The translations under genes were made by a program, and so were the position numbers. Under the pieces are notes generated by a model, which searched no databases, was not told where the DNA came from, and was given only the letters and a program-made list of their open reading frames with translations. 64,000 bases of DNA from positions 7,551-71,550 of the forward strand of contig JAJYDW010000002.1 in the NCBI GenBank assembly GCA_021790385.1, in the 5' to 3' direction. Positions 31,802 through 48,377 of this stretch are shown here, in pieces; within the stretch, counting starts at the first letter, position 1, and each line of letters begins with the position of its first letter. This DNA comes from Planctomycetota bacterium. GTDB lineage: Bacteria; Planctomycetota; Phycisphaerae; WQYP01.

Positions 31802-32036
31802 GCCCGGCATGGCCGCGTTCTCAATGACCTCCAACGACCTGATACAAGTCTCGCCATTTTTCACAAAAGCGGCCGGAAACAGAACGTCCCGATGGCCTGC
31901 TTTATGCCGCGGAGTCCTGCCTCGGCCGCGCCGGAAGATTTTGCCATACTTGGCTCGATGGGGCGCGGGCGGCAACGCATGAGACAAAACATACGTATCC
32001 ACTGCGTAGGCGCTAAGGTATGCCGAAAGCGGAGTT

Positions 32037-33586: not shown

Positions 33587-34828
33587 ATGATACCCAGGCA
33601 CACGCATTATGATGTTATTGTCATCGGGGGCGGTCCGGCCGGCAGTACTGCCGGTACTCTTCTGGCCCGACGCGGATATCGCGTGCTTATTCTAGAAGCG
33701 CAGCGCCATCCCCGCCATCATATTGGCGAGTCTCTGCTGCCGGCCGGAATGCCTGTGCTGGCAGAATTAGGCCTGGACTTAACATTTATGCTCCAACGCC
33801 ATCAGCCAAAATATGGGGCACGGTTTTTTGATCCAAGGGATCAGCGGCTGGAGACGTTTGCGTTTGGGGTGCCAAGCGATCCCGTTCCTCCCGCTTTTAA
33901 CGTCAGCCGCGAGGAATTTGATACCCAGCTTAAGGATGCGGCCGTGGCCGCGGGCTGCGAATTTCTGGAGGATACTCCGGTGGTCCAGGCCGAGGCAGAC
34001 CATCAGCCGATTCGCGTTACGCTTACGGATGGATTGCCGGTTACTGCGGATTTTCTGGTGGACGCTTCCGGCGCGGCGGCCAAACTGACGCGGCAACAGA
34101 GTGGCGTGGAAATGTTGCTGGATTTTGGCAGGTTGGCCATTTATAATTATTTTTCCCATCTGCCGACTGCCCATACCGATGAGCGTGCATATCTGACCAT
34201 GCACCTGATAGAACATGGATGGATATGGTTTATTCCTTTGACCGGTGATCGAACCAGTGTGGGAGTGGTGCTGAAAAAAACAGGCTTGCGGCCGAAGTGC
34301 AGCCCGCAGGAGCAATTTGCCGCGGCGGTTGCGGAAAGTCCCACGCTGGCCGGGCGGCTTAAGCCATTGACAGCACTGGAGCCGTACCGGGTTTGTGCGG
34401 GTTACAGTTATCGTTGTCGGCCTTTGACCTGCCGCTATGGCCTGACGGTTGGTGATGCGGGTGGATTTTTAGATCCAATTTTTTCTAGCGGGGTGTATCT
34501 GGCGCTCATGAGTGCCCAGCGCGGTGCCCAGGCAGTAGCGGAATGTTTAAGCGGCAACACGGCAGAACCGCTGCAGCAATATCGTCAATATATGGCCGAT
34601 GGACTGCACGTGTTTGAGTCATTTGTGCGGCGATTTTATCAGCGTGATTTGGTACGAAATTTATTTTTTGCCCGCCATCAGCCACCGGCCGTACGCGCGG
34701 CCGTGATCTCTATCCTGGCCGGGCATGTGTGGGATCAAACCAATCCGCTGGTTGCGGCTGTGGGGCGAAGCGACGGAAATTCAACCGCCAGCGCCCCGGC
34801 GGCAACGCCGGCAGAGGTTGCAAATTAA
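33587..34828 (+). CDS. FAD-dependent oxidoreductase of the flavin-dependent halogenase family (WxWxIP motif present)
   Basis: 413 aa. Rossmann dinucleotide motif DVIVIGGGPAGS; the motif HGWIWFIPL (WxWxIP); GDAGGFLDPIFSSGV (GD-motif); and a candidate Lys in KYGARF. Confidence 0.65.
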   Translation: MIPRHTHYDVIVIGGGPAGSTAGTLLARRGYRVLILEAQRHPRHHIGESLLPAGMPVLAELGLDLTFMLQRHQPKYGARFFDPRDQRLETFAFGVPSDPVPPAFNVSREEFDTQLKDAAVAAGCEFLEDTPVVQAEADHQPIRVTLTDGLPVTADFLVDASGAAAKLTRQQSGVEMLLDFGRLAIYNYFSHLPTAHTDERAYLTMHLIEHGWIWFIPLTGDRTSVGVVLKKTGLRPKCSPQEQFAAAVAESPTLAGRLKPLTALEPYRVCAGYSYRCRPLTCRYGLTVGDAGGFLDPIFSSGVYLALMSAQRGAQAVAECLSGNTAEPLQQYRQYMADGLHVFESFVRRFYQRDLVRNLFFARHQPPAVRAAVISILAGHVWDQTNPLVAAVGRSDGNSTASAPAATPAEVAN

Positions 34829-34874
34829 ATGGCCGGATGCGGGCCGAGGGCAGTTGGCCGCAGCGGATTGATGT

Positions 34875-36149
34875 ATGGATGAAAAGACCTTGCTTACTCC
34901 GGTGGCCGTTACAGGCATGTCCATGATTACGGCGCAGGGAGCGTGTTTGGCGGATTCCTGGGCGGGTATTAGTACTGCGGCAAACGCATTACGGCCGTGG
35001 AATGACGATTCTGATGACAAACTGGGGCGATTGCAGGTGGCCTCGTGCGGAGAGTTGCGGTGTCCGGCGGATATGCCAGCTAAGCTCTGGGCCGGGCTGG
35101 CGCGAACGCAACAGTTGGCGGCTCTGGCGGCCGACGAGGCCCTGACCAGCGCGGGGTTGCCGCGGCGATTGGCCCCGTCGTCCAGACCGATGGGGCTGTT
35201 TCTGGCCACCACTGTATGCGGCATGGATAAAAATGAGCAATTTTACCGGCAATATCGGCAGAATCCGCAGATGGCGAATTCCCGGCTGATGCGGCGCATT
35301 CAATCTTATGAAGTTCTGACTTTTATTGCCCGCCGGCATCGCCTGAACGGCCCGCGAATATTGTTTTTGAGTACGTGCGTAGGATCGTCTATGGCGATTG
35401 GTGCAGCGTGCGATGCCATTCGTCTGGGGCGTGTGGATATTGCACTGGCGGGCGGTGCGGAAGCACTGTGTCGGTTGCTGTTGTCAGGCTTCAACAGCCT
35501 GCGGCTGGTGGCACCCAATGGATGCCAACCCTTTGATGCACATCGCCCGGGCATTACCGTGGGTGAGGGGGCGGCACTGCTGGTTTTGGAATCTGCCGCC
35601 CACGCCAAGGCTCGCGGGGCCAAACCGATAGGATATGTGCGCGGCTTTGCGGCCACATGCGATGCCCACCATATTACCGCTCCGGAACCCGGCGGGCACT
35701 GGGCTGCATCAGCTATTCAGGCCGCGGTTGAAAAGTCAGGTTTAATGCCCGGCGACATCGGATATGTCAATGCGCACGGTACCGGTACGCGCGATAACGA
35801 TGCCATGGAGGCCAAAGCCATTCCCACGGCATTTGAAGCACTTGACGCGGCAGTTCCACCGGTCAGTTCCACCAAGCGGCTGACCGGGCACACCTTTGCC
35901 GCAGCCGGTGCGATTGAAGCGGCGATCTGCCTGCAGGCTATGGCCACGGGCATATTGCCGCCCAACGCGGGACTTGCAGAGCCGGACTCTGCCTGCCAAC
36001 TACCGCTGGTTTTGCAGTCACGGCCGGCGCGGACGAATGCGGCGATTTCGTGTAATTTTGCCTTCGGTGGCAACAACACGGCGCTGGTCTTTTCCCGGCA
36101 TATCGAAACGGGACGTGGCGGCATGGTGGGGAAAGGAGCGATGGAATGA
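34875..36149 (+). CDS. Beta-ketoacyl-ACP synthase (FabF/KAS-II-like, Cys-His-His triad)
   Basis: 424 aa. Active-site Cys in LSTCVGSS, and two catalytic His in ATCDAHHITAP and YVNAHGTGT. A thiolase fold is predicted. Confidence 0.8.
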   Translation: MDEKTLLTPVAVTGMSMITAQGACLADSWAGISTAANALRPWNDDSDDKLGRLQVASCGELRCPADMPAKLWAGLARTQQLAALAADEALTSAGLPRRLAPSSRPMGLFLATTVCGMDKNEQFYRQYRQNPQMANSRLMRRIQSYEVLTFIARRHRLNGPRILFLSTCVGSSMAIGAACDAIRLGRVDIALAGGAEALCRLLLSGFNSLRLVAPNGCQPFDAHRPGITVGEGAALLVLESAAHAKARGAKPIGYVRGFAATCDAHHITAPEPGGHWAASAIQAAVEKSGLMPGDIGYVNAHGTGTRDNDAMEAKAIPTAFEALDAAVPPVSSTKRLTGHTFAAAGAIEAAICLQAMATGILPPNAGLAEPDSACQLPLVLQSRPARTNAAISCNFAFGGNNTALVFSRHIETGRGGMVGKGAME

Positions 36150-37069
36150 GTTTGCTGCATATCCACTCGCTGGGTATTTGCACCAGTACATGGCCGTCGA
36201 TAGGCCAGCTTCGAAAAGCCATTGCCTTAGGCCAAGGGCATGGCGAAACCGGCTCCGGCGATGAGGTTGCCAGGCAGAAAAAGCCAGGTGATGCGGCGAT
36301 GGTTGAAAGTATGGATGCGGTGAGTCGATGGGCGATTGGGGCAATAACCGAGGCCTGGCAGGGAGCGTCTCTGGATCAAGGCATTGTGCCGACCGACCGC
36401 ATTGCCCTGCTTTTGTACAGCGCGTGGGGACAGGTGGATTCCACAGTTACGTATCTGGAAAGCATGTGGGGTGATGGCGGACGATTTGCTTCGCCGCGGC
36501 ACTTTACGCGTTCGGTACATTCGAGTCCGACATCTTTGGCCGCAATTCATTTTGGCATCCACGGTCCGTGCCAGACGCTGGTGCATGATGCGTGGCCGGT
36601 GTGTTCGGTGCTGGAGCAGGCCGATGATTTATTGAATGCCGACCGGGCAGATACGGTAATTGTATGCTGGGCAGATCAGCCATCGGCGGTAGCGACGGAA
36701 TTGTGCCGGCGTGCCGCAGAGGATCTGCATCGAGCCCAATTTGCCCGTTTTGCCGGCGGAGATTCTCACGGCGGAGCTGTTGCGGCGGTGGTCAGCATCA
36801 ACGCGATATTACCGGGTGCAGAGTTTGGGGTGGAGGTTGGTCCGGTGGCAGCTAACAAGAAGTCAGTGGGGGCCGGTGCGGTGGTAGAACAGGGTGCGTA
36901 TCCTACAGATGGAGCGCTGCATTGGGCGGCGGCAGGTGTGGCATGGTCGCTGGCGGCGGCAAAGGCGGAGGGCAAAGCGCTGCCGGCGGCAGCAGATTAT
37001 TGGCGGGAAAGCGGACACCATGGACAAATGCGGGAGGTGAGATTTTGCCGGGTGGCGGCCCGCGAGTGA
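36146..37069 (+). CDS. Ketosynthase-like protein lacking the active-site Cys (chain-length-factor-like partner)
   Basis: 307 aa. It overlaps the upstream KS gene by 4 nt (ATGA). The position of the KS active-site Cys reads LYSAWGQV instead, with no Cys-His-His triad, but KS-like N-terminal fold motifs remain. Confidence 0.55.
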   Translation: MSLLHIHSLGICTSTWPSIGQLRKAIALGQGHGETGSGDEVARQKKPGDAAMVESMDAVSRWAIGAITEAWQGASLDQGIVPTDRIALLLYSAWGQVDSTVTYLESMWGDGGRFASPRHFTRSVHSSPTSLAAIHFGIHGPCQTLVHDAWPVCSVLEQADDLLNADRADTVIVCWADQPSAVATELCRRAAEDLHRAQFARFAGGDSHGGAVAAVVSINAILPGAEFGVEVGPVAANKKSVGAGAVVEQGAYPTDGALHWAAAGVAWSLAAAKAEGKALPAAADYWRESGHHGQMREVRFCRVAARE

Positions 37070-37943: not shown

Positions 37944-39464
37944 TTACGGATGGTGCTGCGCTGCGGGCAGATGCCGGAAGTTTGGTTCCGGCAGAAGCGT
38001 GGCGGTGGCCACACGTATGACCTTGACGACAGCACCGCCGGTAACTACGCCTTTAATGCCGATGTACTCGCCCAGCAACCGGGATAAATCAATGCGAGAA
38101 CTGGGATCGATATACGCACTGACGCGGCCATTAGCGGGGTTTACCAGGGCATATTTGGTTTTCAGCACGGTGCTGGTTCGCAGCACGCCCTTGGCCACAT
38201 AAGGAGCATGGTCGATGGCTTCGGCAATCTGCTGCTGCGATTCCTGCCACTGTTGCTGGTATGGGGCGATGACCTTGCTTACCGGAGGTGTGCTAGCAGA
38301 GGATTTCACCAGTTCCTGAATGGCGATATCTTTTTTGAGATCATGGATGCGAGCAGCCACACCCTGCTTAATCCAGGCGGGTGCACTGGCCACGGCGGCA
38401 AGCTGCTGATAGCCATGGAGCAACGGTTTAAGCTGTCGCTGAAGCAGCGGTTTTTGGAATTCCAACTGCATGGTTCGGTTCAGGCTGCTGAATTTGGTAA
38501 ATAAGCTAACGTTAGCGGAATTGGGGGTGGTCGCCGTCGGCGGCAGGGGCGATACCGCCACGACTGTGCCGGAATTACCCGAATTGGAGCCAGTTTCCGG
38601 CAGCGGGACCGTCTGACCCGGCGGAAGGGTGTTGGGCTGGGTGGTCACGCTGGAAGAGGTATTGCCGGAAGACGAAGGGAGTACGGCGGAGTTGCCGGTG
38701 GACAACGATGCGGCCAATGTGGCCCCTTTGAAACCTGCGGGCATTTTTAACTTAGGGGCGAGGTATTGAGCATCTGCACCGGCTGAGGTTACGAATTTGG
38801 CCAACACATATACATGGGCACCATGCGGCGGCTGGATGACATAAAAACTTGGTGTGCTGCCGACAATATGAACATGGGTGCCGCGAGACACGACTTTCAC
38901 GACGGCATAATCGGACCGTGGGGCCAGACGACTGGCGGCACGCACAAAAACGTATTTGGCGGAAACCCGGCCTTGGGTGGTGTCTGATCCAACATGGACG
39001 AATTTTTTGGCGATGTAACAAAGCGTGCCGACAGGAGGATCAATGGCGTCCCAGCCGTTGCGGGAGCCGACGACATTTACCATATCTCCGGTGGTCAGTT
39101 GTCCTAAAGCATAATAAGCCAAGCCGGGGCCGCTGCGGATATTGACATTACTGGTGTTAATGGAACCGACGGCACCGCTAAGGGGTATCTTGGCCTTGAC
39201 TTTTTTGGCCGTTTTGGCCGGCTGCGTCTGCGCGGCTTGGCGCGTTGTGGGTGCCGGCGCGGTAGTGCTAAGGGGTGGCAGGCCGGAGACCGCGGGCACA
39301 GGCACGGTAACGCTGGGCACGGTTGCGCCGGGTGCCGCGGGCTTAGAGCCGACGGGCGGTGCTGACGCGGCCAGGCTGACTGAGCCACAGGACAGCACAC
39401 CAGTCAGAACGGTCACTGCCAATAGTTTTTTTTGATGACCAAAAGCAGATAAACTTAATTGCAT
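37944..39464 (-). CDS. Secreted SH3b-domain protein, hypothetical
   Basis: It has a signal peptide (MQLSLSAF...LAASAPP), an AAGGAG ribosome-binding site 6 nt before the ATG, and a bacterial SH3 motif (NVNIRSGPGLAYYALGQLTTGDMVNVVG.RNGWDAI). The remainder is Pro/Ser/Thr-rich. Confidence 0.6.
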   Translation of the reverse strand: MQLSLSAFGHQKKLLAVTVLTGVLSCGSVSLAASAPPVGSKPAAPGATVPSVTVPVPAVSGLPPLSTTAPAPTTRQAAQTQPAKTAKKVKAKIPLSGAVGSINTSNVNIRSGPGLAYYALGQLTTGDMVNVVGSRNGWDAIDPPVGTLCYIAKKFVHVGSDTTQGRVSAKYVFVRAASRLAPRSDYAVVKVVSRGTHVHIVGSTPSFYVIQPPHGAHVYVLAKFVTSAGADAQYLAPKLKMPAGFKGATLAASLSTGNSAVLPSSSGNTSSSVTTQPNTLPPGQTVPLPETGSNSGNSGTVVAVSPLPPTATTPNSANVSLFTKFSSLNRTMQLEFQKPLLQRQLKPLLHGYQQLAAVASAPAWIKQGVAARIHDLKKDIAIQELVKSSASTPPVSKVIAPYQQQWQESQQQIAEAIDHAPYVAKGVLRTSTVLKTKYALVNPANGRVSAYIDPSSRIDLSRLLGEYIGIKGVVTGGAVVKVIRVATATLLPEPNFRHLPAAQHHP

Positions 39465-39767
39465 GAGAAACTCCTTGATCGCCAAGCGGGGCTGCACGGC
39501 ATACAGCCCAAGTTGCACCGGCATTGAAGCTATCATTTGCATAGCCACCCGTCAACAAACGTGGTGCCAGCCAAAAACTTATTATATGCCAAATGCCTGG
39601 ATTTTGCCCATCAGATATCCTGGATCATGCAAAGCAGGTGCAATAATAATGCCCACGGTCCCAGGGCGGGTGCGACGGTATATCCCGATGGCTTGCTCCA
39701 CGCCGCATCGGGATTTCGCCATCCCTGGCTCACGGGAGACTGCTATCAGCGGGCAAGGACGCCTACG

Positions 39768-41540
39768 CTATCGAGGCAACCCCTTGGCAGGCGGACGGCG
39801 GTGAGAGTCCACGAATTTGGCGACATCCCAGGCTTGTTGATCGGTCAGGCTGCCAGGTTTGTTGTAGGGCATATTTGCTTTGATGAAAGCGGCGGCCATT
39901 TTGACTTTAGCCATTCCCGCACCCATGTTGTAAGAATGGGGCCCCCACAGCGGAGGATAGACGTAGCGCCCATTGGTCAGCAATCCCTGACCGTGGCTTT
40001 GATGGCAAACGACGCAATTTTGGGTGAACGTGACGCGGCCACGGCTGGTACTGGGCGGCAGGGCAGCGGGCGTGAGAAATTTGTAGCCGCGGCCCGGCAG
40101 GTTGGTGCCTACTGTGGCACCCGTAGCGAGCCAGGCTGCATAGCTGGTCAGGGCGGTGATGACCTTGCCGTCGGCGGGTGGAGACTTGCCGTTCATGCTG
40201 GCGAGAAAACATTCCTGCAGCCGCTTTTGAAAGGTTACCACGCCGCGAGCCTTGGCCTGATATCGCGGGTAGATTACATACGCCGCCCACAGCGGAGCTG
40301 AATAGGCCAGCCGGCCGCTCTGGAGGTGGCAATTCATGCAGCTTAATCCATTACCAACGTACTTTGGGGCGTACGTGCGAGTGTGATCAAATATATTACG
40401 GCCCAGGATTATCATCTTGCCGAATCGCCCGTGCGGCATTTGTGATTCCGGTGGCGGGCTGAATATGGCAGACAGTTCATGCTTCAGTGCCGAAACCTTC
40501 GGTGTTGCCGGATCAAGCGATTGGGCGGTAACTTTCAACGGCCGAAAGCCGTACCGATCAAAGATGGCCTGGGCGGTGGGCGACCGGAGGAACTGGAGCC
40601 ATTCCATGGCCGCTTTGGGATGTTGAGCGTTTCGGACCACCGCACCGGCGTAAATGGCGGTCGTGTTGTATCTGGAGGGAATTGGTACGTAGGAAATGGG
40701 GTGGCCGATTTGCTTTTGAAAGATCGCCTCTGATTTCCATGTGACACCCGCCACCACCAGCCCCTGCATTAAAAACAGGGGTGTCTGGCGGTGGTGAATG
40801 TGCGTAAGAATGGTCTGGCCGTCGGCAACCTTGCTCTGATAAACCCTCTTTTCCAGGGCCGGTCCGCCGGCTTTTTTCAGTGAAAGTTGAATCTGCCGGG
40901 CTACGCCTTCCCATGCGGGATTGGGCATGGCCAACCGCACGCCGGGCTTGCCCAGATCAGAAAGCGTGCGGATATGCCCCGGGTTGCCGCGCGGTACCAT
41001 AATGGCCAGATCGTTAGTGGTATAGCTGATCACCGGGCCGCGCAAAATACCAGCGTGAATTAACGCCTGGATTTTGAGCTTTCCGGCGGCATACACATCG
41101 GGTCGGGCAGTCCAGGTCATATTGCCGACGGTAATGGTACCACCGGCCTTTATTTGCCGGAGCAGAATGCCGGGCGGCAACGTTTCAGCGTAAACTTTTC
41201 CTTTCAGCCGTGGATGAAGTTTCTCAAACGCCACAACCAGCGGAGCTACGGCAAAATAATAGTTGCCGCCGATATATAAAACGAGCCGGGCGTTGAAGGG
41301 ATCTCCATGGAAATCGGCCAGATCATCTACTTCCGGAACGGTAAACCGCAAACCCTGGTGAACGGCGGAATTATTCTTTCCGCCGCCCCACGGCGGAAAG
41401 ATCCGTTCCTGATAGACCGGCGGCTGGGCATGGCCATGCCAACCTGAGGTAGCAGCCTGTGTGTTTGATAACGTCAGCAGACCTGCCGCCAAAATCGCGG
41501 CCAGTACCATGATAAATCCGATGAATCGCACGGATGACAT
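39768..41540 (-). CDS. Fusion protein: N-terminal ModA-like periplasmic oxyanion-binding domain + C-terminal TsdA-like diheme cytochrome c
   Basis: The start has an AAGGAG ribosome-binding site 6 nt upstream of the ATG at 41540, followed by a signal anchor. The N-terminal half (LVLYIGGNYYFAVAPLVVAFEKLHPRLKGKVYAETLPPGILLRQIKAGG...) has a ModA/WtpA-type PBP fold. The C-terminal half has two CxxCH motifs (CMNCH, CVVCH), a conserved Cys about 38 residues after heme 1 (RLQECFLASMNG) and PPLWGPHSYNMGAGM, all matching thiosulfate dehydrogenase TsdA. Confidence 0.7.
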   Translation of the reverse strand: MSSVRFIGFIMVLAAILAAGLLTLSNTQAATSGWHGHAQPPVYQERIFPPWGGGKNNSAVHQGLRFTVPEVDDLADFHGDPFNARLVLYIGGNYYFAVAPLVVAFEKLHPRLKGKVYAETLPPGILLRQIKAGGTITVGNMTWTARPDVYAAGKLKIQALIHAGILRGPVISYTTNDLAIMVPRGNPGHIRTLSDLGKPGVRLAMPNPAWEGVARQIQLSLKKAGGPALEKRVYQSKVADGQTILTHIHHRQTPLFLMQGLVVAGVTWKSEAIFQKQIGHPISYVPIPSRYNTTAIYAGAVVRNAQHPKAAMEWLQFLRSPTAQAIFDRYGFRPLKVTAQSLDPATPKVSALKHELSAIFSPPPESQMPHGRFGKMIILGRNIFDHTRTYAPKYVGNGLSCMNCHLQSGRLAYSAPLWAAYVIYPRYQAKARGVVTFQKRLQECFLASMNGKSPPADGKVITALTSYAAWLATGATVGTNLPGRGYKFLTPAALPPSTSRGRVTFTQNCVVCHQSHGQGLLTNGRYVYPPLWGPHSYNMGAGMAKVKMAAAFIKANMPYNKPGSLTDQQAWDVAKFVDSHRRPPAKGLPR

Positions 41541-41550
41541 ATCCAACTCC

Positions 41551-42375
41551 TTACTTGATGTACTCATAGCCTGCGAGTTGCAATTCCGGAATCGTCGCGA
41601 CAATACCCGGAGTAAGCACAACTCCCGGAATCAGGTGGTTGGTAAGGTCTGCAGCGAGAGCCTCATGGGTAAGGTGGTCGGGATTATGGCCCTTGGCCAT
41701 GAGAGCATGAGAAAATTCCCAGATGGCATTGTGGCAGGCTAAAAACACGGTTCCGCGTTCCATCAGCAGTGGTATGCAATTGGCACTTGGGGAAAATAAT
41801 CCAAGCGGATTGTTAAAATCTGCGGGAGATTTGCCTTTTGCGCCGGCGGGGATATCGAGAAACACGTTGCGTTTGAATTTCTTGCCGATCATGGCCGGCA
41901 GATTGTACTTTTCCCAGATGTGCTGCTGGAACAGGGCCAGGTGACAGGTGCCATGATTAGCGGACACCGCCAGAAAATTTGGATGCTTAAAGGACCATAC
42001 TTGAGCGTTGGTGGCGTTACGCATGAGATTGAGCCAGGGACTGCCAATATCGGTGTTATCCCACACCTGCCTGGGGCCTCCGTGATAGGTGAGCAGCAGG
42101 TTCAGGGCTTCGTAGTCCCACTGTTGCGGTTCGGTAAGAATCATGGGAACGGTTTTGAAATTTCTGTGCCGTGGTGCCTGGGCCAGGGCGACCGAGAGAT
42201 CCTTGAGGTTTTTGGCACCACGCGGTTCGAGCGGAGCGGCCATTGGAGCCGCTGAGGCGGCGGCACCGGGCAAAGCCAGAAGCGCCGCTCCGGCAATTCC
42301 GCCTTTGGCCAGCCATGCCAGCATTTTTCGTCGGGGCATTGGGGTTTCCAACAGAGTAACGGGATGGTCTTTCAT
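41551..42375 (-). CDS. Hypothetical Tat-secreted protein with conserved Cys/His (co-transcribed with PBP-TsdA fusion)
   Basis: 274 aa. An AAGGAG sits 6 nt before the ATG. It has a twin-arginine-like signal (MPRRKMLAWLAKGGIAGAALLALPGAAAS) and Cys in HGTCHLALF and FLACHNAIWE. It ends 10 nt before the downstream gene. Confidence 0.5.
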   Translation of the reverse strand: MKDHPVTLLETPMPRRKMLAWLAKGGIAGAALLALPGAAASAAPMAAPLEPRGAKNLKDLSVALAQAPRHRNFKTVPMILTEPQQWDYEALNLLLTYHGGPRQVWDNTDIGSPWLNLMRNATNAQVWSFKHPNFLAVSANHGTCHLALFQQHIWEKYNLPAMIGKKFKRNVFLDIPAGAKGKSPADFNNPLGLFSPSANCIPLLMERGTVFLACHNAIWEFSHALMAKGHNPDHLTHEALAADLTNHLIPGVVLTPGIVATIPELQLAGYEYIK

Positions 42376-42647
42376 GGGGAACTCCTTAAAAAAAGAAACA
42401 ACATCTCGCTGCATGTCGTGCAACTTTGAGCACAAGCCAATCGGCTTATTCGCAACATCAATCCGCCCTCCATCCACCATCGGTCACAGTCAGACGACCG
42501 TTGGTAGATGACACACAATTGTACGCTACTGGTAGTACATAATGGAAATACATATTTTTTATATGAAGGATATATTTTTGTTATGTATCAACCCGGTGGG
42601 CCGGTGTATTGCACCTGGTGAAAGCCGGTATTGAAGGGCTGTAAACT

Positions 42648-44582
42648 TTACGCGTGACTGTCCGCTTTGGCTTGCAAATCGGCAATAGCATGCATGATGC
42701 GGACGGTACACTGTTCCAGAGCAGACTGGTCAGGCTGGCGGGAGGAAATGTCGGTAAATCGCAGAGGCGCTCCATAATACAGCCGGACTTTGCCGGGCCG
42801 CAGGAAATCCCATAATCTGCGGCGATGCCTGTGCGATGAATGTACGTATACGGGTACCACCGGTGCCCCACTCATCAGGGCCAATGCCGCAATTGCCGGA
42901 TGGGGCAGCTGCAGCAGGCCGGATTCAGCAATGAAGCCATCGGGAAAGATTCCCACCACGTTGCCGCTGCGCAAGGCTCGCAAGGCGGACCGAAAGCCTG
43001 CTGCAGAGGTCGATCCTCGATTGACTGGTATGGCGTGGCTGCAACGCAGCAGCGAGCCTAAGAAAACGTTCTGATAGGATTTTTGGGCAAAGATAAGGCG
43101 GATAAACCTCCGCGGACTGCTGATCAATAAAGCCACAGGATCGAGCCTGCTGCGTTGATTAGCGGCAACAATCACCGGGCCGTGGGCGGGAATGCGGCAT
43201 GGGCCGATTTGCCGGTACCCATGCCATACCACCATATAGGCCCGCAAAATCCGCAAAGCAATGGCCTGGCCCGGCGGCAGAGCCTTGCCGCGGTAATAAA
43301 TAATCACCAGCCCTATGCCCAGCAACAGCGAAACGGATCCCATGGCGTAGATCAGTTTTACCACCAGCACATTGATGCTGGGGAGCAGCGCCATGGGAAC
43401 GGTCATGGCAATAAGCCCGGCGGTGGTTACCAGATCCCGCACGCCCATCACCCGGCCGCGCATAAAATCTGGCACAATGCGTTGCAGCAGGGTGTCGACA
43501 CTGATAAACATGATGGATCCAAAACATGCCGCCACCATCAGCCACAGCACCATGACCGGCCAGCTTTGGGCATGAGCGGCCAACAGCAGGCCGATGCCCA
43601 GCAGCACCACCGACCATCCAATACCGATTTCCTTGGGAATATTCTGTTTGGCGCGGCTAAGGGCTAAGGCCCCGGCAATCATTCCCAGGCCGGTCAGGGC
43701 CATGGTGAAATACAAATACCGCGAATCCAGGTGAAAACGTCTGTGTACCAGACTGGGCAGACTGTTGAGAATAGCCGTGCTGATGGCGAAAAAGCCCAGT
43801 TCCAAAGCTATAACCTGAAGCGGTCGCGAGTGGCGCTGCAGATAGCCCACGCCCTGTTGCAAGCTCGCCCGAATGGTGGGGCCGCGTGTGGCCGGAGCCG
43901 GTTGATCCACCCCGGGCGGGAGCCGCATAGTTATCACACAGACCGCGGAGATACAGTAAGTAACCGCGTCTACATACATGGCGTAGGATAGATTGCGGGT
44001 AACCAGCCACCCCCCCACCAGAAAGCCGATCAAGGTTACAATCGTGCCTGCGGGGTTGATCCAGGCGTTGGCCTGCAGCAATTGCCGGGGATGAACCAGG
44101 TTGGGCAAAATCGCCGCGCGTGCCGGCGAAAACATTTCCCCGAAGATGGACAGCACCACTTCAGAGCCAAACAGCAGCCAGAGCAATTGCGGTACGGACA
44201 TCCAGCGTTCCATGGCTCCGGCCAGCAGCACGGTTCGCGCGATAACCACCAGCACCGCGCGGGCCAGATCACAGGAAATCATGATGCGGCGCCGGGGGAT
44301 GCGATCGGCGACAATGCCGGCCAGGGGGGCCAGGAGAAAAAACGGCAGAAACATGGCCAGATTGAGCTGGGCAAAATGCTGTGAATCCACCGCCTGCTGC
44401 CGCAGAATCACGATGCACAGCAACTGCAGCATCACCAGAAAGTGCACCCGGTCTCCCAGTACGGAAACCACATAGGAACCAAACAGCAGCAAATAATTAC
44501 GATTGCGGGCCAGCGGCGGGAAGTGTTCCAGAAGAGGTGTCTGAGCCTTGCCAGAGTTGATTGTGCCCCGGCCTTGCGCCAT
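42648..44582 (-). CDS. MFS transporter (LplT-like) fused to C-terminal PlsC-type acyltransferase domain with His->Gln in HX4D
   Basis: 644 aa. The N-terminal portion (roughly 400 aa) has about 12 TM segments and MFS motifs (VADRIPRRR). The C-terminal PlsC domain carries block I VAANQRSRLDP (aligning with VANHQSYID, so the His is replaced by Gln) and block III IFPDGF. Confidence 0.7.
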   Translation of the reverse strand: MAQGRGTINSGKAQTPLLEHFPPLARNRNYLLLFGSYVVSVLGDRVHFLVMLQLLCIVILRQQAVDSQHFAQLNLAMFLPFFLLAPLAGIVADRIPRRRIMISCDLARAVLVVIARTVLLAGAMERWMSVPQLLWLLFGSEVVLSIFGEMFSPARAAILPNLVHPRQLLQANAWINPAGTIVTLIGFLVGGWLVTRNLSYAMYVDAVTYCISAVCVITMRLPPGVDQPAPATRGPTIRASLQQGVGYLQRHSRPLQVIALELGFFAISTAILNSLPSLVHRRFHLDSRYLYFTMALTGLGMIAGALALSRAKQNIPKEIGIGWSVVLLGIGLLLAAHAQSWPVMVLWLMVAACFGSIMFISVDTLLQRIVPDFMRGRVMGVRDLVTTAGLIAMTVPMALLPSINVLVVKLIYAMGSVSLLLGIGLVIIYYRGKALPPGQAIALRILRAYMVVWHGYRQIGPCRIPAHGPVIVAANQRSRLDPVALLISSPRRFIRLIFAQKSYQNVFLGSLLRCSHAIPVNRGSTSAAGFRSALRALRSGNVVGIFPDGFIAESGLLQLPHPAIAALALMSGAPVVPVYVHSSHRHRRRLWDFLRPGKVRLYYGAPLRFTDISSRQPDQSALEQCTVRIMHAIADLQAKADSHA

Positions 44583-44657: not shown

Positions 44658-47600
44658 TCACGGGTCTCCGCGGAAACCGGCGATGACTTGGTTGGTGAGG
44701 CTGACCGTACGGGCCGGCGTGCGGGATCGGGTGTCAGACTTGCCGGCGGCAATGGCGCGCTGCAATTCGCGCACCCGATTCTGGGAAAGTTCCATTTTCG
44801 GATAGCGCACCTCGCGAAAACCGGTTACCGATTCCGGTGAGCGGAGAATATCCAGCCAGAGGTTGTACAGCCATGGTTCGTGAAGTTCGCAGGTATCCAC
44901 CAGGCGGGTGTACCAATCGCGGTAGCCCTTTTCACGGGCATGCCAGGATGGCAACAAAGCCCGCATCCAGCGGCAATGCCGGAGAATACGCATTTGCCAG
45001 TCCCGCCCCTTGATATGAAAGCGGATTTTGACGCCGCCAATTTCAAACTCAGGTTGATTGAGATGCAGGTATTTAATTTTATCGCCATTGGCGGGGTTGA
45101 CATTGTAGCGGCGGCGATCGCGCCGGTATTTTTCCGGGCTGGTATAGAGCATAGCTACGTATACTTCATCCTTAATCATCATCACCCTGGCGAGATTCCA
45201 GATCACGGCGCGGGTAACGGCGAAATTTCGCTCGGCATGGTCCTGCTGGTAGGTTTTCACGATCCGGGAGGCATAGCTGCGGCCGTAGGGCAACGTGCCC
45301 CATTGAATGGCATCGAAAAGGCGAATGACATAGTCGCGGCGGGCGGCGTCATCCAGTTGGGGCATCTGATCCAGGGTGGTGCGGCACAGGCGGCGATAAA
45401 GTGTAGCATTGCGGCGGCCCCAGAGCGAACTTACGGTGAGGATATTGGCCTTGCGCTCGATGGCCTGATCGACCGTTTCCACCTGGCGCGGTGCCGCGAC
45501 GCCGAAAAGATCGGGCCGCAGCACAATTTTCCGGCCGATATTGAAAGCCCGGTAATTGCGTTCAAATTCTCTGCGTACCGCGTGGCGAATGGCCCAGGTG
45601 ATGCTTTTGTAGGATACGGGAATAAAGCCCAACTGGTAGGCCACTCCCAGCATCATGATGTTGGCGTAGAGCTTGGAATCGAGCAGGCGTTCGCACAGAT
45701 CGCCGACATTAAAACTGAAGAACCGCCCCGGTTTGCACTGCTTAAGGATGATTTGCGCGAGGTCTTCGGGGGAAAAATCATCACGGCCCAGCAGGGTCAG
45801 AATTGTGGGTGTTTTGCCCGTGTTCACCACAGCGTGGGTATATTTGGGCGAGGCCACGCGAAGATAATCCACAGGCGATATGGCGCGGGCAGCTTCGACG
45901 GCATCGACACCAATGAGCAAGTCCGCCTTGCCAAACGGAGTGATGGCTGAGCCATGAACCGGCTGACGGGAAAAGAGCAGTTGGCTGAACACCCCGCCGT
46001 TGCGGATCGCCAGACCTTTCTTATCCACAAACGCAATCTGGTAACCTTCCTTATGGCCGGCGCGAACCAGAATTTCACCGGCAACACCAATACCCATGCC
46101 ACCCACTCCAGCGAGATAACAACGCCATTGATCGCGCATTTTCATGGCGGGCGGCTCGGGCATGCCGGTTAAGTCCACCACTTCATCGGACATGCGCGGC
46201 GGTCGTTTGCGGGTAACAATGACCTGTTCAAAACTCGGACAGGCATGAATGCGCGAACAGGCCTGGTCGTTCACACAGGTGGTAAAGTCGGTCTGTATTT
46301 TTGGGCCGTAGTCGGTGTCCGTTATTTTTAAGGCAGGACAGCCGGTCTGGTTGGTGCATTCCAGGCAATATTCGCACACTTCATCGGTAACATTCATGTA
46401 GGATTTTTGGCGTACAAAGCCGTGGTCCTTTTTTTCCGCCACTTCCGCCCGGTGTTTCCGGCGGTTGAAGGTGATGCCGCATTCTTTATCGGCGATAACC
46501 ACTTTGACGCCGTCTTCCAGGATCACCCGCTCCAGCGTGTCGCGGTATTCTTCGCGGTTGGCCGGGTTCATGCGTATAACCCGGCCCTGCGGCACGATAC
46601 GGCCATCCTTGCGTTTCATGCCCAGGGGGCCGGCGGCATCGGGAATGATGGCCCGGACAATGCGCTCAATATCGTGGGAAAGCACCGTTTGGCCCACAAT
46701 GTCCTGCGCCATGGTGGGATTGGGTTGATGGCCGGTCATGGCGGTGGTTTTGTTTTCCAGGATGATGTACGTGATATCCTGGCCCTGGTTGATGGAATTG
46801 GCAATGGCCAACTGGCCGGAATGGAAAAACGTGCCATCGCCCATGAATACCAGTTGTTTGTTGCTGATGAATGGATCGACGCCGCCGCCGGTGGCTCCGC
46901 CCAAGCCCATGCCGCTGTAGTTATGCATGAGTGGCTTGTTGGGTTCAAACATCATCATGGTATAGCAGCCGGTATCGCCATGTGCGACCAGATCCATCGG
47001 ACCGCGGCCATATTGATCCTGCATGTACCTGGGGTCCAGCAGGCGTCTGCGAATTTCCAATAACGCGCTGGATGAATCGCGATGCGGGCAACCGGGGCAA
47101 TACGCCGGTGTGCGCACGGGCACGGTCATTTGGACCTGGCTGGCCAGGGCAATGGTTTCCAATTCTTCCGTCAGCCGCCCATTGGATAGCTCGTGGGGAA
47201 TATTAGGTGTATCGCGTAGGAATTTCGTCAGCAGTTCGATGAGAATAGAGGGATGGAGTCCACGGGTGGAAGGAATGCCCGGGGTTTTACCGGGAAAATT
47301 TTTACCCCATAGCTCCACGCGTGCACTGGCATGTTCCGGATCGGCCTGGCGGCGTTGGGTGAGATATTCCGTTACCTGTTTTTCAATAAAACTGCGCCGT
47401 TCTTCCACCACGATAATGCGTTCGCACATGGCCGCAAGTTCGTCGACCAGCGTTGTATCTACCGGATAACTGATGGCCAGTTTGAGCAGGGGGAACTGGC
47501 CTAAAAGCCCCATTTCACTCAAGGCATGAGCCAGCATGGTATGGGACATTCCGGAGGCAATAAAGCCCACCGGGCAGCGTTGCGAACGCCCGCCGCGCCA

Positions 47601-48377
47601 ACTGCGTTCAATGGGGTATAAAATCCGCGACAGGCCCAGTTCCCGACAGCGGGCCAGCAGGGCCTTGAAGCGATCATCAAAAGTCAGTTCCTGCCGCCAA
47701 CTGCGTGGTGGCAGAAGAACCGTTGTTTCCACAGGAATCTTACCTGTATCAATGGCAATGCGGGCGTTGGTAGAGATGGTGGGCCACTGGTTGGGCCGGC
47801 ATTCCACCGTGCCGCCGCCGTCACCCAGGGCCACCGTAACCATCATGCCCACGTATAATTTGGAGGCCACGGATAGATCAAACGCCTGGGCCACCCAATC
47901 TTTGAGTTCCTGCGGATTAGAGGGTTCCATCACCGGAACGCGCAGATGTTCAAACAAAAACCGGGAATCGGCGGGAACCTGGGTGGAATCGCTCCATGGA
48001 TCATCACCTGATACTACCACTGCCCCGCCGGTGGCATGCGGAATACCGGCCAGACTGCCCAATGCCAGAGCGTCTGCCGCGACATGCAGACCCACGGATT
48101 TAAATACCGCGATGGCCTTCACCCCCACCATCTGCGAGCCGTTGAGCATGGCTACACTGATAGCCTCATTATTGGCCATCTTGGCGCAGACGCCCTTTTC
48201 CGTCAGCAATTCGCCGATGTCCTGGCAGGAATCGAAAAACCCGGCCAACGGAGAGCCGGGGTAGCCTGTAAGCAAGGCAACACCACCAGGTGTTTCCAGG
48301 CAGCCCTTGAGCAAAAGCTCTGAACCGCCGAAGATTTCGGTACCACCTTCAACCAAATATCGAGGGTCAATTTTCAT
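44658..48377 (-). CDS. Indolepyruvate:ferredoxin oxidoreductase family protein (fused IorA/IorB type 2-oxoacid:ferredoxin oxidoreductase)
   Basis: 1239 aa. It has TPP-binding motifs, a ferredoxin-like Cys cluster region (CPGCPH...) and a C-terminal IorB-like domain. The size is typical of fused Ior proteins. Confidence 0.8.
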   Translation of the reverse strand: MKIDPRYLVEGGTEIFGGSELLLKGCLETPGGVALLTGYPGSPLAGFFDSCQDIGELLTEKGVCAKMANNEAISVAMLNGSQMVGVKAIAVFKSVGLHVAADALALGSLAGIPHATGGAVVVSGDDPWSDSTQVPADSRFLFEHLRVPVMEPSNPQELKDWVAQAFDLSVASKLYVGMMVTVALGDGGGTVECRPNQWPTISTNARIAIDTGKIPVETTVLLPPRSWRQELTFDDRFKALLARCRELGLSRILYPIERSWRGGRSQRCPVGFIASGMSHTMLAHALSEMGLLGQFPLLKLAISYPVDTTLVDELAAMCERIIVVEERRSFIEKQVTEYLTQRRQADPEHASARVELWGKNFPGKTPGIPSTRGLHPSILIELLTKFLRDTPNIPHELSNGRLTEELETIALASQVQMTVPVRTPAYCPGCPHRDSSSALLEIRRRLLDPRYMQDQYGRGPMDLVAHGDTGCYTMMMFEPNKPLMHNYSGMGLGGATGGGVDPFISNKQLVFMGDGTFFHSGQLAIANSINQGQDITYIILENKTTAMTGHQPNPTMAQDIVGQTVLSHDIERIVRAIIPDAAGPLGMKRKDGRIVPQGRVIRMNPANREEYRDTLERVILEDGVKVVIADKECGITFNRRKHRAEVAEKKDHGFVRQKSYMNVTDEVCEYCLECTNQTGCPALKITDTDYGPKIQTDFTTCVNDQACSRIHACPSFEQVIVTRKRPPRMSDEVVDLTGMPEPPAMKMRDQWRCYLAGVGGMGIGVAGEILVRAGHKEGYQIAFVDKKGLAIRNGGVFSQLLFSRQPVHGSAITPFGKADLLIGVDAVEAARAISPVDYLRVASPKYTHAVVNTGKTPTILTLLGRDDFSPEDLAQIILKQCKPGRFFSFNVGDLCERLLDSKLYANIMMLGVAYQLGFIPVSYKSITWAIRHAVRREFERNYRAFNIGRKIVLRPDLFGVAAPRQVETVDQAIERKANILTVSSLWGRRNATLYRRLCRTTLDQMPQLDDAARRDYVIRLFDAIQWGTLPYGRSYASRIVKTYQQDHAERNFAVTRAVIWNLARVMMIKDEVYVAMLYTSPEKYRRDRRRYNVNPANGDKIKYLHLNQPEFEIGGVKIRFHIKGRDWQMRILRHCRWMRALLPSWHAREKGYRDWYTRLVDTCELHEPWLYNLWLDILRSPESVTGFREVRYPKMELSQNRVRELQRAIAAGKSDTRSRTPARTVSLTNQVIAGFRGDP

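Follow-up and report, generated by a model that had tools for sequence, protein, structure and literature searches.

Thiosulfate can be converted to tetrathionate by three systems that are generally regarded as unrelated, namely the diheme cytochrome TsdA, the membrane quinone reductase DoxDA (thiosulfate:quinone oxidoreductase (TQO)) and the heme-free thiosulfate dehydrogenase (TSD). In Acidithiobacillus ferrooxidans, TSD has a mass of ~25 kDa, carries no heme and produces tetrathionate at pH 2.5 (PMC6335251, summarising Kikumoto et al. 2013). It is part of the previously described tat(tsd)–sbp–doxDA 'TQO complex operon' (AFE_0042–AFE_0044; TPY_2171–2169 in Sulfobacillus acidophilus), an association that has been in print since 2009 (PMC2754497, PMC5114278). 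The second gene of this operon, AFE_0043, encodes a sulfur-induced 'periplasmic solute-binding protein' (SBP) of the A. ferrooxidans thiosulfate cluster (PMC2754497; PMC6335251). In A. ferrooxidans, the genes for the twin-arginine translocation (Tat) substrate, SBP and DoxDA are induced together on sulfur (PMC2754497), and those of S. acidophilus are mutually co-induced in FeSO4-containing medium (PMC5114278). TsdA, in turn, has a precedent for fusion to a partner domain in TsdBA. Here we describe a locus that connects these systems, namely the neighbouring genes tsd and sbp::tsdA in a 64,000-nucleotide stretch (the window) of contig JAJYDW010000002.1 from a Planctomycetota bacterium of the Phycisphaerae.

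All parts of the locus belong to known families, namely TsdA, TSD of the AFE_0042 type and sbp of the AFE_0043 type, and the locus is not a new type of system. With moderate confidence, we read it as a two-gene periplasmic module that oxidises thiosulfate to tetrathionate, a fused variant of the tsd–sbp–(doxDA/tsdA) arrangements of acidophilic sulfur oxidisers. It shares with the TQO complex operon the first two components, which are adjacent, co-oriented and in the same order. It differs in having, instead of the membrane-bound quinone reductase DoxDA, a soluble diheme TsdA in covalent fusion with the SBP; because TsdA takes the place of DoxDA, electrons would enter the chain at the level of cytochrome c and not of quinone. 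The window also lacks the rhodanese and TehA-like genes that the Acidithiobacillus cluster contains. A preliminary description of the sequence had taken the architecture to be undescribed for TsdA enzymes, and we found no paper on an SBP–TsdA fusion in the searchable literature; that description nevertheless overlooked that the gene is a fused form of the known tat(tsd)–sbp–doxDA operon. SBP::TsdA proteins are present in public databases, machine-annotated. What is new relative to the searchable literature is the covalent SBP::TsdA and SBP::TsdB::TsdA architectures, together with the systematic linkage of sbp to tsd with TsdA as an alternative to DoxDA.

The cytochrome half of the fusion protein

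From its N terminus, the fusion protein consists of a signal peptide followed by a type-II periplasmic binding domain, which a linker connects to a complete TsdA diheme cytochrome (Table 1). In a Pfam search, SoxA-TsdA_cyt-c (34 bits, cut-off 27) and Cytochrom_C (41.4 bits) matched at aa 397–579. Searches of the Protein Data Bank (PDB) with phmmer aligned the C-terminal half end to end with solved TsdA enzymes over 223–236 residues, with Marichromatium purpuratum TsdBA (MpTsdBA; 5lo9) matching at E = 3.9e-64 and Allochromatium vinosum TsdA (AvTsdA; 4wq7) at E = 6e-48. The same half of an AlphaFold2 (AF2) model retrieved TsdBA and TsdA in Foldseek at E = 1e-14 to 1e-11. The model of the whole fusion (predicted local distance difference test score (pLDDT) of 65.6, predicted TM score (pTM) of 0.48) was used for fold assignment only; it is weakest in the cytochrome half, which was modelled heme-free, and its domain packing is unreliable.

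Catalytic positions were assigned by reading the alignment to AvTsdA against the active-site description in PMC4423706. The fusion protein contains exactly two CxxCH motifs (C401–H405 and C509–H513). The predicted distal ligand of heme 1, C444, lies 39 residues after His405 in the segment RLQEC444F, which aligns with RIGDCF in AvTsdA and RIQGCF in MpTsdBA; the AvTsdA counterpart, Cys123, is Cys96 in mature numbering. A PLWGP-type motif is found as PPLWGPHSYNMGAGM at aa 529–543. These are the TsdA hallmarks named in the preliminary description, and all of them hold. Moreover, R440 and S448 occupy positions that are invariant in TsdA (Arg119 and Ser127 of AvTsdA), and K430 occupies one at which either Arg or Lys occurs (PMC4423706). 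Both heme motifs and C444, R440, S448, K430, G542, K545 and M557 are invariant in 25 full-length fusion orthologues. As judged by these alignments, the C-terminal half is a TsdA with a complete set of catalytic residues. Its 230 residues align fully with solved TsdA and TsdBA, including both CxxCH motifs, the Cys ligand, the equivalents of Arg119, Ser127 and Gly221 and the heme-2 Met. In contrast to TsdBA, the fused partner is an N-terminal binding domain and not the diheme c4-like TsdB, and the protein has only two CxxCH motifs. No solved or described TsdA carries a binding domain, and the neighbouring gene in the window encodes a heme-free TSD rather than TsdB.

The surroundings of heme 2 bear on the direction of the reaction. 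M557, in the segment FIKANMP, is the predicted sixth ligand of heme 2 and aligns with AvTsdA Met209 and with Met255 of Campylobacter jejuni TsdA (CjTsdA). Asn556 sits at the position of AvTsdA Lys208, and among the AvTsdA entries the K208N variant (4wqc) scored best. CjTsdA, a tetrathionate reductase, likewise has Asn at this position and Met ligation of heme 2, and its K-x-N-M environment is matched by K554, N556 and M557 (PMC5146829). This match would suit an alternative in which the locus encodes a periplasmic tetrathionate reductase, serving anaerobic respiration or detoxification, whose binding domain captures tetrathionate and whose TsdA domain reduces it to thiosulfate. TsdA enzymes can work in both directions, the Planctomycetota fusion has no fused TsdB-type acceptor, and tetrathionate withstands acid pH better than thiosulfate does. 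We nevertheless consider such a reversal unlikely. In sulfur oxidisers, this SBP is found together with the thiosulfate:quinone oxidoreductase DoxDA, and the Acetobacteraceae versions of the module add TsdB, the electron acceptor of thiosulfate-oxidising TsdA. Asn–Met at heme 2 is also seen in the phmmer alignment to MpTsdBA, an enzyme that Kurth et al. reportedly found in 2016 to be biased toward thiosulfate oxidation. Finally, the family to which the partner TSD belongs has been characterised as tetrathionate-forming (PMC6335251).

The binding domain

The Pfam family SBP_bac_11 covers aa 86–333 of the fusion protein (E = 3.9e-50), and the N-terminal half of the AF2 model matched type-II periplasmic binding proteins of the ModA, PEB3, SubI and WtpA kinds in Foldseek (target-normalised TM score of 0.65–0.81). 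Two of the results on which the preliminary description hinged, a predicted periplasmic binding fold in this half and an aligned Cys ligand in the other, were thus both obtained. Its assignment to a ModA/WtpA type was right as to the fold but not as to the family. The nearest solved relatives by sequence are the sulfate-binding proteins SubI and Sbp, not ModA, and the domain falls short of the NCBIfam cut-offs for modA (31.5 against 62.5), sulfate SBP (32.5 against 155.5) and CysP (29.1 against 308). A study of A. ferrooxidans ModA/WtpA (PMC11350598) treats a different gene, AFE_1498, and is irrelevant to this domain.

The domain contains the motifs MPNPAWEGVARQ, THIHHRQTP (aa 246–254) and GVTWKSEA, and retains the Sbp motifs PNPxxxGxAR and (A/T)WxxEA. 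In the alignment to Sbp (1SBP), S130 corresponds to E211, G131 to G212, G132 to V213 and the sulfate-contacting W192 to W268, whereas the ligands of the N-terminal lobe are unalignable. The domain therefore shares with the Sbp, CysP, SubI and ModA receptors the type-II fold, the Pfam family, both motifs of Sbp and, by alignment, this Trp, and differs from them in the exchange of Ser130 for Glu211, in its sub-cut-off scores, in the lack of cognate transporter genes, and in an added, invariant N-terminal extension of ~55 residues and the THIHHRQTP loop.

Much closer relatives are standalone SBPs from Acidithiobacillus, Thiomonas, Sulfuriferula, Halothiobacillus and the Firmicute Candidatus Hydrogenisulfobacillus, to which the domain is 63–70% identical (computed over aa 30–335, ~310 residues). 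The identity reaches into the N-terminal extension and the THIHHRQTP loop, and the alignment of the family has 130 invariant columns. Because this identity is held across phyla, we regard these proteins as a separate, tightly constrained family. By sequence, the domain is not a generic ModA but a member of the AFE_0043-type 'sbp' family, found in the company of TSD and DoxDA.

That the domain is an ordinary receptor of an ATP-binding cassette (ABC) importer of the ModA, CysP or Sbp type, for molybdate, sulfate or thiosulfate, and that its attachment to a cytochrome is functionally meaningless, is hardly credible. The fold and the Pfam family are those of ModA and Sbp, and a single Phycisphaerales lineage (L006:3658–6823 and L007:2–2837) has genes for an ABC permease, an ATPase and an AAA_assoc_C protein immediately upstream of tsd–sbp::tsdA. 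However, no ABC transporter genes lie beside sbp in the window or in eight of the nine distinct contexts inspected (the ABC-free ones include L002, L004, L008, L009, L010, L011 and L012). The failure at every ModA, Sbp and CysP cut-off and the cross-phylum identity also speak against a transport receptor, as does the conservation of the uninterrupted fusion in 20 species-level genomes, with tsd upstream wherever this could be evaluated.

The heme-free partner

The product of tsd matched the NCBIfam equivalog NF052225 'thiosulfate dehydrogenase' over its full length (profile positions 1–259 of 259) at 364.6 bits, above the cut-off of 300. The same model is passed by genes from the Acidithiobacillus AFE_0041–0050-type cluster, Sulfuriferula, Thiomonas, a Phycisphaerales metagenome-assembled genome (MAG) and an Acetobacteraceae MAG; the probable AFE_0042 orthologue, picked by cluster gene order (L012), scored 416.5 bits. 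On this profile evidence, the partner is an AFE_0042-type TSD, and thus a member of a named enzyme family. This strengthens the link to thiosulfate that the preliminary description had offered as one candidate, since the partner lies in a characterised TSD family (PMC6335251) and the SBP family adjoins DoxDA and TsdA modules. By contrast, nothing in the neighbourhood or the family associations points to selenium or to another oxyanion, which that description had also entertained.

The twin-arginine leader begins MKDHPVTLLETPMPRRKMLAWLAKGG and spans approximately aa 1–45; the TSD family keeps R16 without exception and R15 in at least 90% of sequences. The 274-residue precursor, whose size agrees with a mature protein of ~25 kDa, has no CxxCH heme motif. 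Here too, the preliminary description was correct about the Tat signal and the absence of heme motifs; of the two cysteine motifs that it took to be conserved, HGTCH and FLACHN, only the second is invariant. Among 32 diverse TSD members, C214 (FLACHN) is the only invariant Cys, whereas most members have Ala in place of the HGTCH cysteine and C200 is replaced by Ser.

The predicted fold of TSD has a DsrE-type α/β core, with C214 at the end of a strand (209–214) and ahead of a helix (215–227). The relationship is visible only by structure and in weak hhalign matches: no Pfam family, DsrE (PF02635) included, matched TSD up to E = 10, and a TSD-family profile found no match among PDB sequences. 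C214 aligns with the Cys of VAVCGQ in a Pfam-DsrE protein that occupies the same genomic position elsewhere (hhalign, E = 5.7e-4). The predicted DsrE-like nature of TSD appears to be new relative to the searchable literature, although some automated annotations hint at it. TSD differs from the DsrE carriers (DsrEFH, TusBCD and archaeal DsrE3A) in being periplasmic, Tat-exported, ~100 residues larger and invisible to Pfam DsrE, and in having been annotated and assayed as a dehydrogenase and not as a carrier. Archaeal DsrE3A is said by Liu et al. (2014, J Biol Chem 289:26949) to bind thiosulfate from tetrathionate.

Distribution of the module

To place the locus among its relatives, one genome per species was scanned, and the resulting 80 species-level loci were sorted by tblastn with four modules. 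The two-domain SBP::TsdA fusion, as an uninterrupted open reading frame (ORF), was found in 20 of the 80 loci (19 with TSD, plus one on a truncated contig), all of them Planctomycetota/Phycisphaerae MAGs from acid-mine and sulfur-cave sites. In all 19 loci with intact upstream sequence, tsd lies directly upstream of the fusion gene, while nothing else is conserved around the pair in five independent Phycisphaerae contexts. Among the Planctomycetota fusion loci, with the two near relatives of the window excluded, the SBP half is the most conserved part, at 70–78% identity compared with 57–70% for the TsdA half and 62–73% for TSD.

Among the other arrangements, TSD with SBP and DoxDA occurs in 15 loci, from Proteobacteria and a few other phyla, and TSD with SBP alone in 14 (for example, Thiomonas and Sulfuriferula). 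SBP has tsdA nearby in 11 loci, nine with TSD and two without, as in Thiomonas delicata (tsdA–tsd–sbp) and Acidiphilium. SBP with DoxDA and no tsd within 4 kb upstream is found in 12 loci, including those of A. ferrivorans, A. ferrianus and A. ferriphilus (L033, L034, L037, L039–L042, L046, L053, L074, L076 and L077). Because these 12 species have sbp–doxDA without tsd, SBP pairs with DoxDA independently of TSD. Across several phyla, TSD is directly upstream of the SBP gene in approximately three-quarters of the evaluable loci.

Acetobacteraceae show a series of arrangements: two loci (L082 and L061) encode tsd, sbp, a TsdB-like cytochrome c and tsdA as separate genes in this order, and a third (L085) has tsd–sbp–tsdBA. 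On an unclassified metagenome contig (ENA ERZ27256462), a single 802-residue ORF (P0026; L094:5001–7409) combines SBP, a TsdB-like diheme domain and TsdA. The gene upstream of it (L094:4371–4940) encodes a 189-residue protein with a Sec signal and a genuine Pfam DsrE match in place of the ~270-residue TSD. The recurrent element is the binding protein, which is linked to a DsrE-like TSD and to a thiosulfate-oxidising electron outlet. The outlet is either membrane-bound DoxDA or soluble TsdA, with or without TsdB, and the window holds the most compact form. The SBP is linked or fused to each of these systems in a graded series (separate genes, sbp with tsdBA, SBP::TsdBA and SBP::TsdA), which constitutes Rosetta-stone evidence that the proteins cooperate.

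Two other long members of the SBP family were recovered. P0242 (Logan SRR11288141; L093:147–1685), of 512 residues, carries the SBP at aa 42–334 followed by a C-terminal domain of ~160 residues with the TSD-like motifs VRVCHNTM and ELQTDHGYAYAK. The similarity of this domain to DsrE is weak (18.8 bits with Pfam DsrE, below the cut-off of 22.7; E = 0.009 with hhalign), and P0242 may be an SBP::DsrE-like Rosetta-stone fusion. The gene downstream of P0242 was rejected as a member of the module, being unrelated to TSD, TsdA and DoxDA. P0033 from Candidatus Hydrogenisulfobacillus filiaventi (826 residues; L011:7001–9481), annotated as an 'exported protein of unknown function', has an SBP of 67% identity followed by ~490 residues without a Pfam family, and no tsd, doxDA or tsdA lies next to its gene. 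Neither P0033 nor P0026 qualified as a TSD::SBP fusion, as they have no similarity to TSD and P0026 is SBP::TsdB::TsdA.

These arrangements also raise the alternative, possible but doubtful, that the binding domain takes no small ligand and instead acts as a protein adaptor, a docking platform on which the DsrE-like TSD would be kept next to a redox module, TsdA at this locus and DoxDA at others. TsdA would then oxidatively load thiosulfate on Cys214 of TSD or take electrons from a TSD-bound intermediate, compare SoxAX and SoxYZ. The frequent position of tsd directly upstream of the SBP gene, the resemblance of P0242 to an SBP::DsrE-like fusion and the canonical DsrE protein upstream of P0026 are in keeping with such a role. 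So are the most invariant segments of the SBP (aa 30–85 and the THIHHRQTP loop), which are of low confidence in the monomer model, as interfaces often are. TsdA is a homologue of SoxA, and the two share the Cys-ligated heme and Cys-S-thiosulfonate chemistry (PMC4423706); a further likeness to SoxAX–SoxYZ is a small periplasmic partner with a single reactive-looking Cys. The locus differs from that system in the DsrE-like fold of the partner, in retaining the narrow active site of the TsdA type and in having no SoxB, SoxCD or SoxX nearby, and carrier loading would be hypothetical.

Several results count against docking. The 12 SBP–DoxDA loci without nearby TSD imply a role for the SBP that is independent of TSD, and the resemblance of P0242 to DsrE is below the Pfam cut-off. 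Furthermore, the active-site cavity of TsdA is small, with residues of the electron-transfer domain intruding into it (PMC4423706), and because the equivalents of these cavity-narrowing residues, G542 and K545, are conserved, a protein co-substrate is argued against. A docking role retains some probability because Glu211, in the presumed anion site, is invariant and because the invariant surface segments are of low confidence.

Proposed mechanism

Under the favoured reading, thiosulfate oxidation by the fused module, the binding domain would capture thiosulfate at the cell surface and keep it beside the Cys444-ligated heme 1 of the TsdA domain. There, two thiosulfates would be joined to tetrathionate through a Cys-S-thiosulfonate intermediate, and the two electrons would exit through the His/Met-ligated heme 2, to be passed by a soluble periplasmic acceptor to a terminal oxidase. 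TSD could contribute in either of two ways: the fused diheme domain may be the physiological electron acceptor that TSD lacks in vitro, or TSD may be a Cys214-based carrier for the thiosulfonate or the tetrathionate product. Thiosulfate is unstable at low pH, and a capture domain would make sense because thiosulfate is scarce and acid-labile in mine-drainage habitats. Substrate capture by the binding domain, which the preliminary description had suggested together with channelling, is plausible, and we infer the identity of the ligand and its transfer to the heme site, as well as what TSD does, the in vivo direction of the reaction and the electron acceptor. The presence of a canonical Pfam-DsrE protein, with a Cys aligned to C214, in the position of TSD at the SBP::TsdB::TsdA locus also speaks for this reading. 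The Phycisphaerae UBA1161 genome 'MAG 19', a probable carrier of the fusion module, encodes caa3 and bd oxidases (PMC8357290), which would fit electron flow from cytochrome c to an oxidase.

A number of observations weigh against thiosulfate capture and oxidation by the fused module. The sulfate-ligating Ser130 of Sbp is an invariant Glu211 in the binding domain, and the ligand therefore need not be a simple dianion. TsdA enzymes work without a binding protein, and the SBP domain is thus not mechanistically required. The AF2 model is too poor (by the pLDDT and pTM given above) to show the binding cleft facing heme 1. Two proteins with thiosulfate dehydrogenase chemistry would be redundant unless their roles in vivo differ. 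TsdA is reversible, and the surroundings of heme 2, with Asn–Met, are similar to those in C. jejuni TsdA, which reduces tetrathionate. Finally, the window contains no gene for an electron acceptor (TsdB, a high-potential iron–sulfur protein or another cytochrome c).

Locus layout and neighbouring genes

Reading of the sequence confirmed the coordinates and sizes of both genes, their 10-nucleotide spacing and their AAGGAG boxes as first described; the two are neighbours on the minus strand (Table 1). The AAGGAG box of the fusion gene overlaps the TAA stop of tsd, only 10 nucleotides separate the tsd stop from the start of the fusion gene, and no terminator-like site was found between them on the minus strand. 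The overlap and the short gap suggest that the two genes form one operon with translational coupling, which supports the co-transcription initially proposed. Promoter and terminator scans of positions 39400–42800 returned nothing above the shuffled expectation, and no promoter was assigned to the operon.

Table 1. Features of the tsd–sbp::tsdA locus. Positions are those of the window; aa, amino-acid residues.
Feature	Position	Strand	Basis
tsd, 274-aa Tat-exported heme-free thiosulfate dehydrogenase, AFE_0042 type	41551..42375	(-)	NF052225 match; DsrE-like predicted fold
AAGGAG ribosome-binding site of tsd, 6 nt before ATG	42382..42387	(-)	sequence read
sbp::tsdA fusion gene, 590 aa	39768..41540	(-)	ORF and domain matches
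AAGGAG ribosome-binding site of the fusion gene, overlapping the tsd TAA stop	41547..41552	(-)	sequence read
Sec-type signal peptide, aa 1–29 (hydrophobic core, then TQA/AT)	41454..41540	(-)	sequence read; cleavage site inferred
Family-specific N-terminal extension, aa 30–85 (PPWxxGxN...FTVPEVDD..DFHGDP)	41286..41453	(-)	invariant columns in two alignments
Type-II periplasmic binding domain, aa 86–333, AFE_0043 'sbp' family	40542..41285	(-)	SBP_bac_11, E = 3.9e-50; Foldseek
Interdomain linker, ~aa 334–360	40461..40541	(-)	variable in length and sequence between orthologues
TsdA diheme cytochrome c domain, aa 361–584	39789..40460	(-)	phmmer against PDB; Foldseek
Heme-1 motif C401-M-N-C404-H405 (catalytic heme)	40326..40340	(-)	invariant in 25 fusion proteins
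K430, AvTsdA Arg109 (Lys an accepted variant)			alignment
R440, AvTsdA Arg119			alignment
Cys444, predicted distal heme-1 ligand and S-thiosulfonate site, AvTsdA Cys123	40209..40211	(-)	residue alignment
S448, AvTsdA Ser127			alignment
Heme-2 motif C509-V-V-C512-H513 (electron-transfer heme)	40002..40016	(-)	sequence; fusion alignment
G542, AvTsdA Gly221, second domain			alignment
K545, AvTsdA Arg224, second domain (conservative Arg-to-Lys change)			alignment
Asn556-Met557	39870..39875	(-)	alignment to AvTsdA

In the AF2 model, the signal region of the fusion protein (aa 2–28) is a single helix. The N-terminal extension is nearly invariant in sequence, yet aa 26–75 have pLDDT below 50 in the monomer. 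The linker region is also modelled at pLDDT below 50 (aa 337–366), and the gap between the SBP and TsdA matches ranges from 10 to 46 residues in the 20 species-level loci.

The genes around the pair are housekeeping or unrelated in the parts of the window scanned with Pfam, in which neither sox, tetH, doxDA or rhodanese genes nor additional cytochrome genes were found; no ORF in the 64-kb window other than the fusion contains CxxCH. Directly upstream of the operon (42648–44582, minus strand) is a 644-residue fusion of a major facilitator superfamily (MFS) transporter and an acyltransferase, similar to LplT-Aas (lysophospholipid transporter/acyl-ACP-phospholipid acyltransferase). It is followed farther upstream by a 1239-residue single-chain protein resembling 2-oxoacid/indolepyruvate:ferredoxin oxidoreductases (44658–48377, minus strand; TPP_enzyme_C, POR and DUF6537). 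Downstream of the fusion gene (37944–39548, minus strand), a 534-residue protein combines a bacterial SH3_3 domain with long low-complexity tracts of Ser, Thr, Pro and Ala; this gene is found downstream of the fusion in the window and at L001, but not at other Phycisphaerae loci. On the plus strand (33587–37069), a tryptophan-halogenase-like flavoprotein gene is followed by a ketoacyl-synthase-like ORF, judged by eye, and by an overlapping 307-residue ORF without a Pfam match, which together may possibly form a small cassette of the polyketide or aryl-polyene type. Genes are on the plus strand at 33.6–37.9 kb and on the minus strand at 37.9–48.4 kb. Between positions 32000 and 48000, GC skew is positive at ~34–48 kb and negative elsewhere.

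Implications

The locus bears on two questions that have stood since 2013, namely the physiological electron acceptor of TSD and the role of the always-adjacent gene for a 'sulfate/molybdate-binding protein'. The fusion is also a soluble, single-polypeptide construct in which substrate capture by the SBP and electron transfer from TSD to heme can be tested. A further-reaching proposal, which we consider improbable, is that the AFE_0043-family SBP is an obligatory subunit shared by TsdA, DoxDA and the heme-free TSD, with the docked TSD serving in vivo as a Cys carrier that is thiosulfonated by TsdA or DoxDA, and not as a dehydrogenase in its own right. If this were true, it would amount to a Sox-independent periplasmic sulfur-carrier pathway and would account for a TSD that has no cofactor or known physiological electron acceptor, for thiosulfate oxidation by the cofactor-poor DoxDA and for the strong conservation of sbp. 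For the organisms themselves, marker-gene surveys had scored acid-mine-drainage Phycisphaerae as being without sulfur-oxidation genes (PMC8357290); with this module, they gain a predicted capacity to oxidise thiosulfate.

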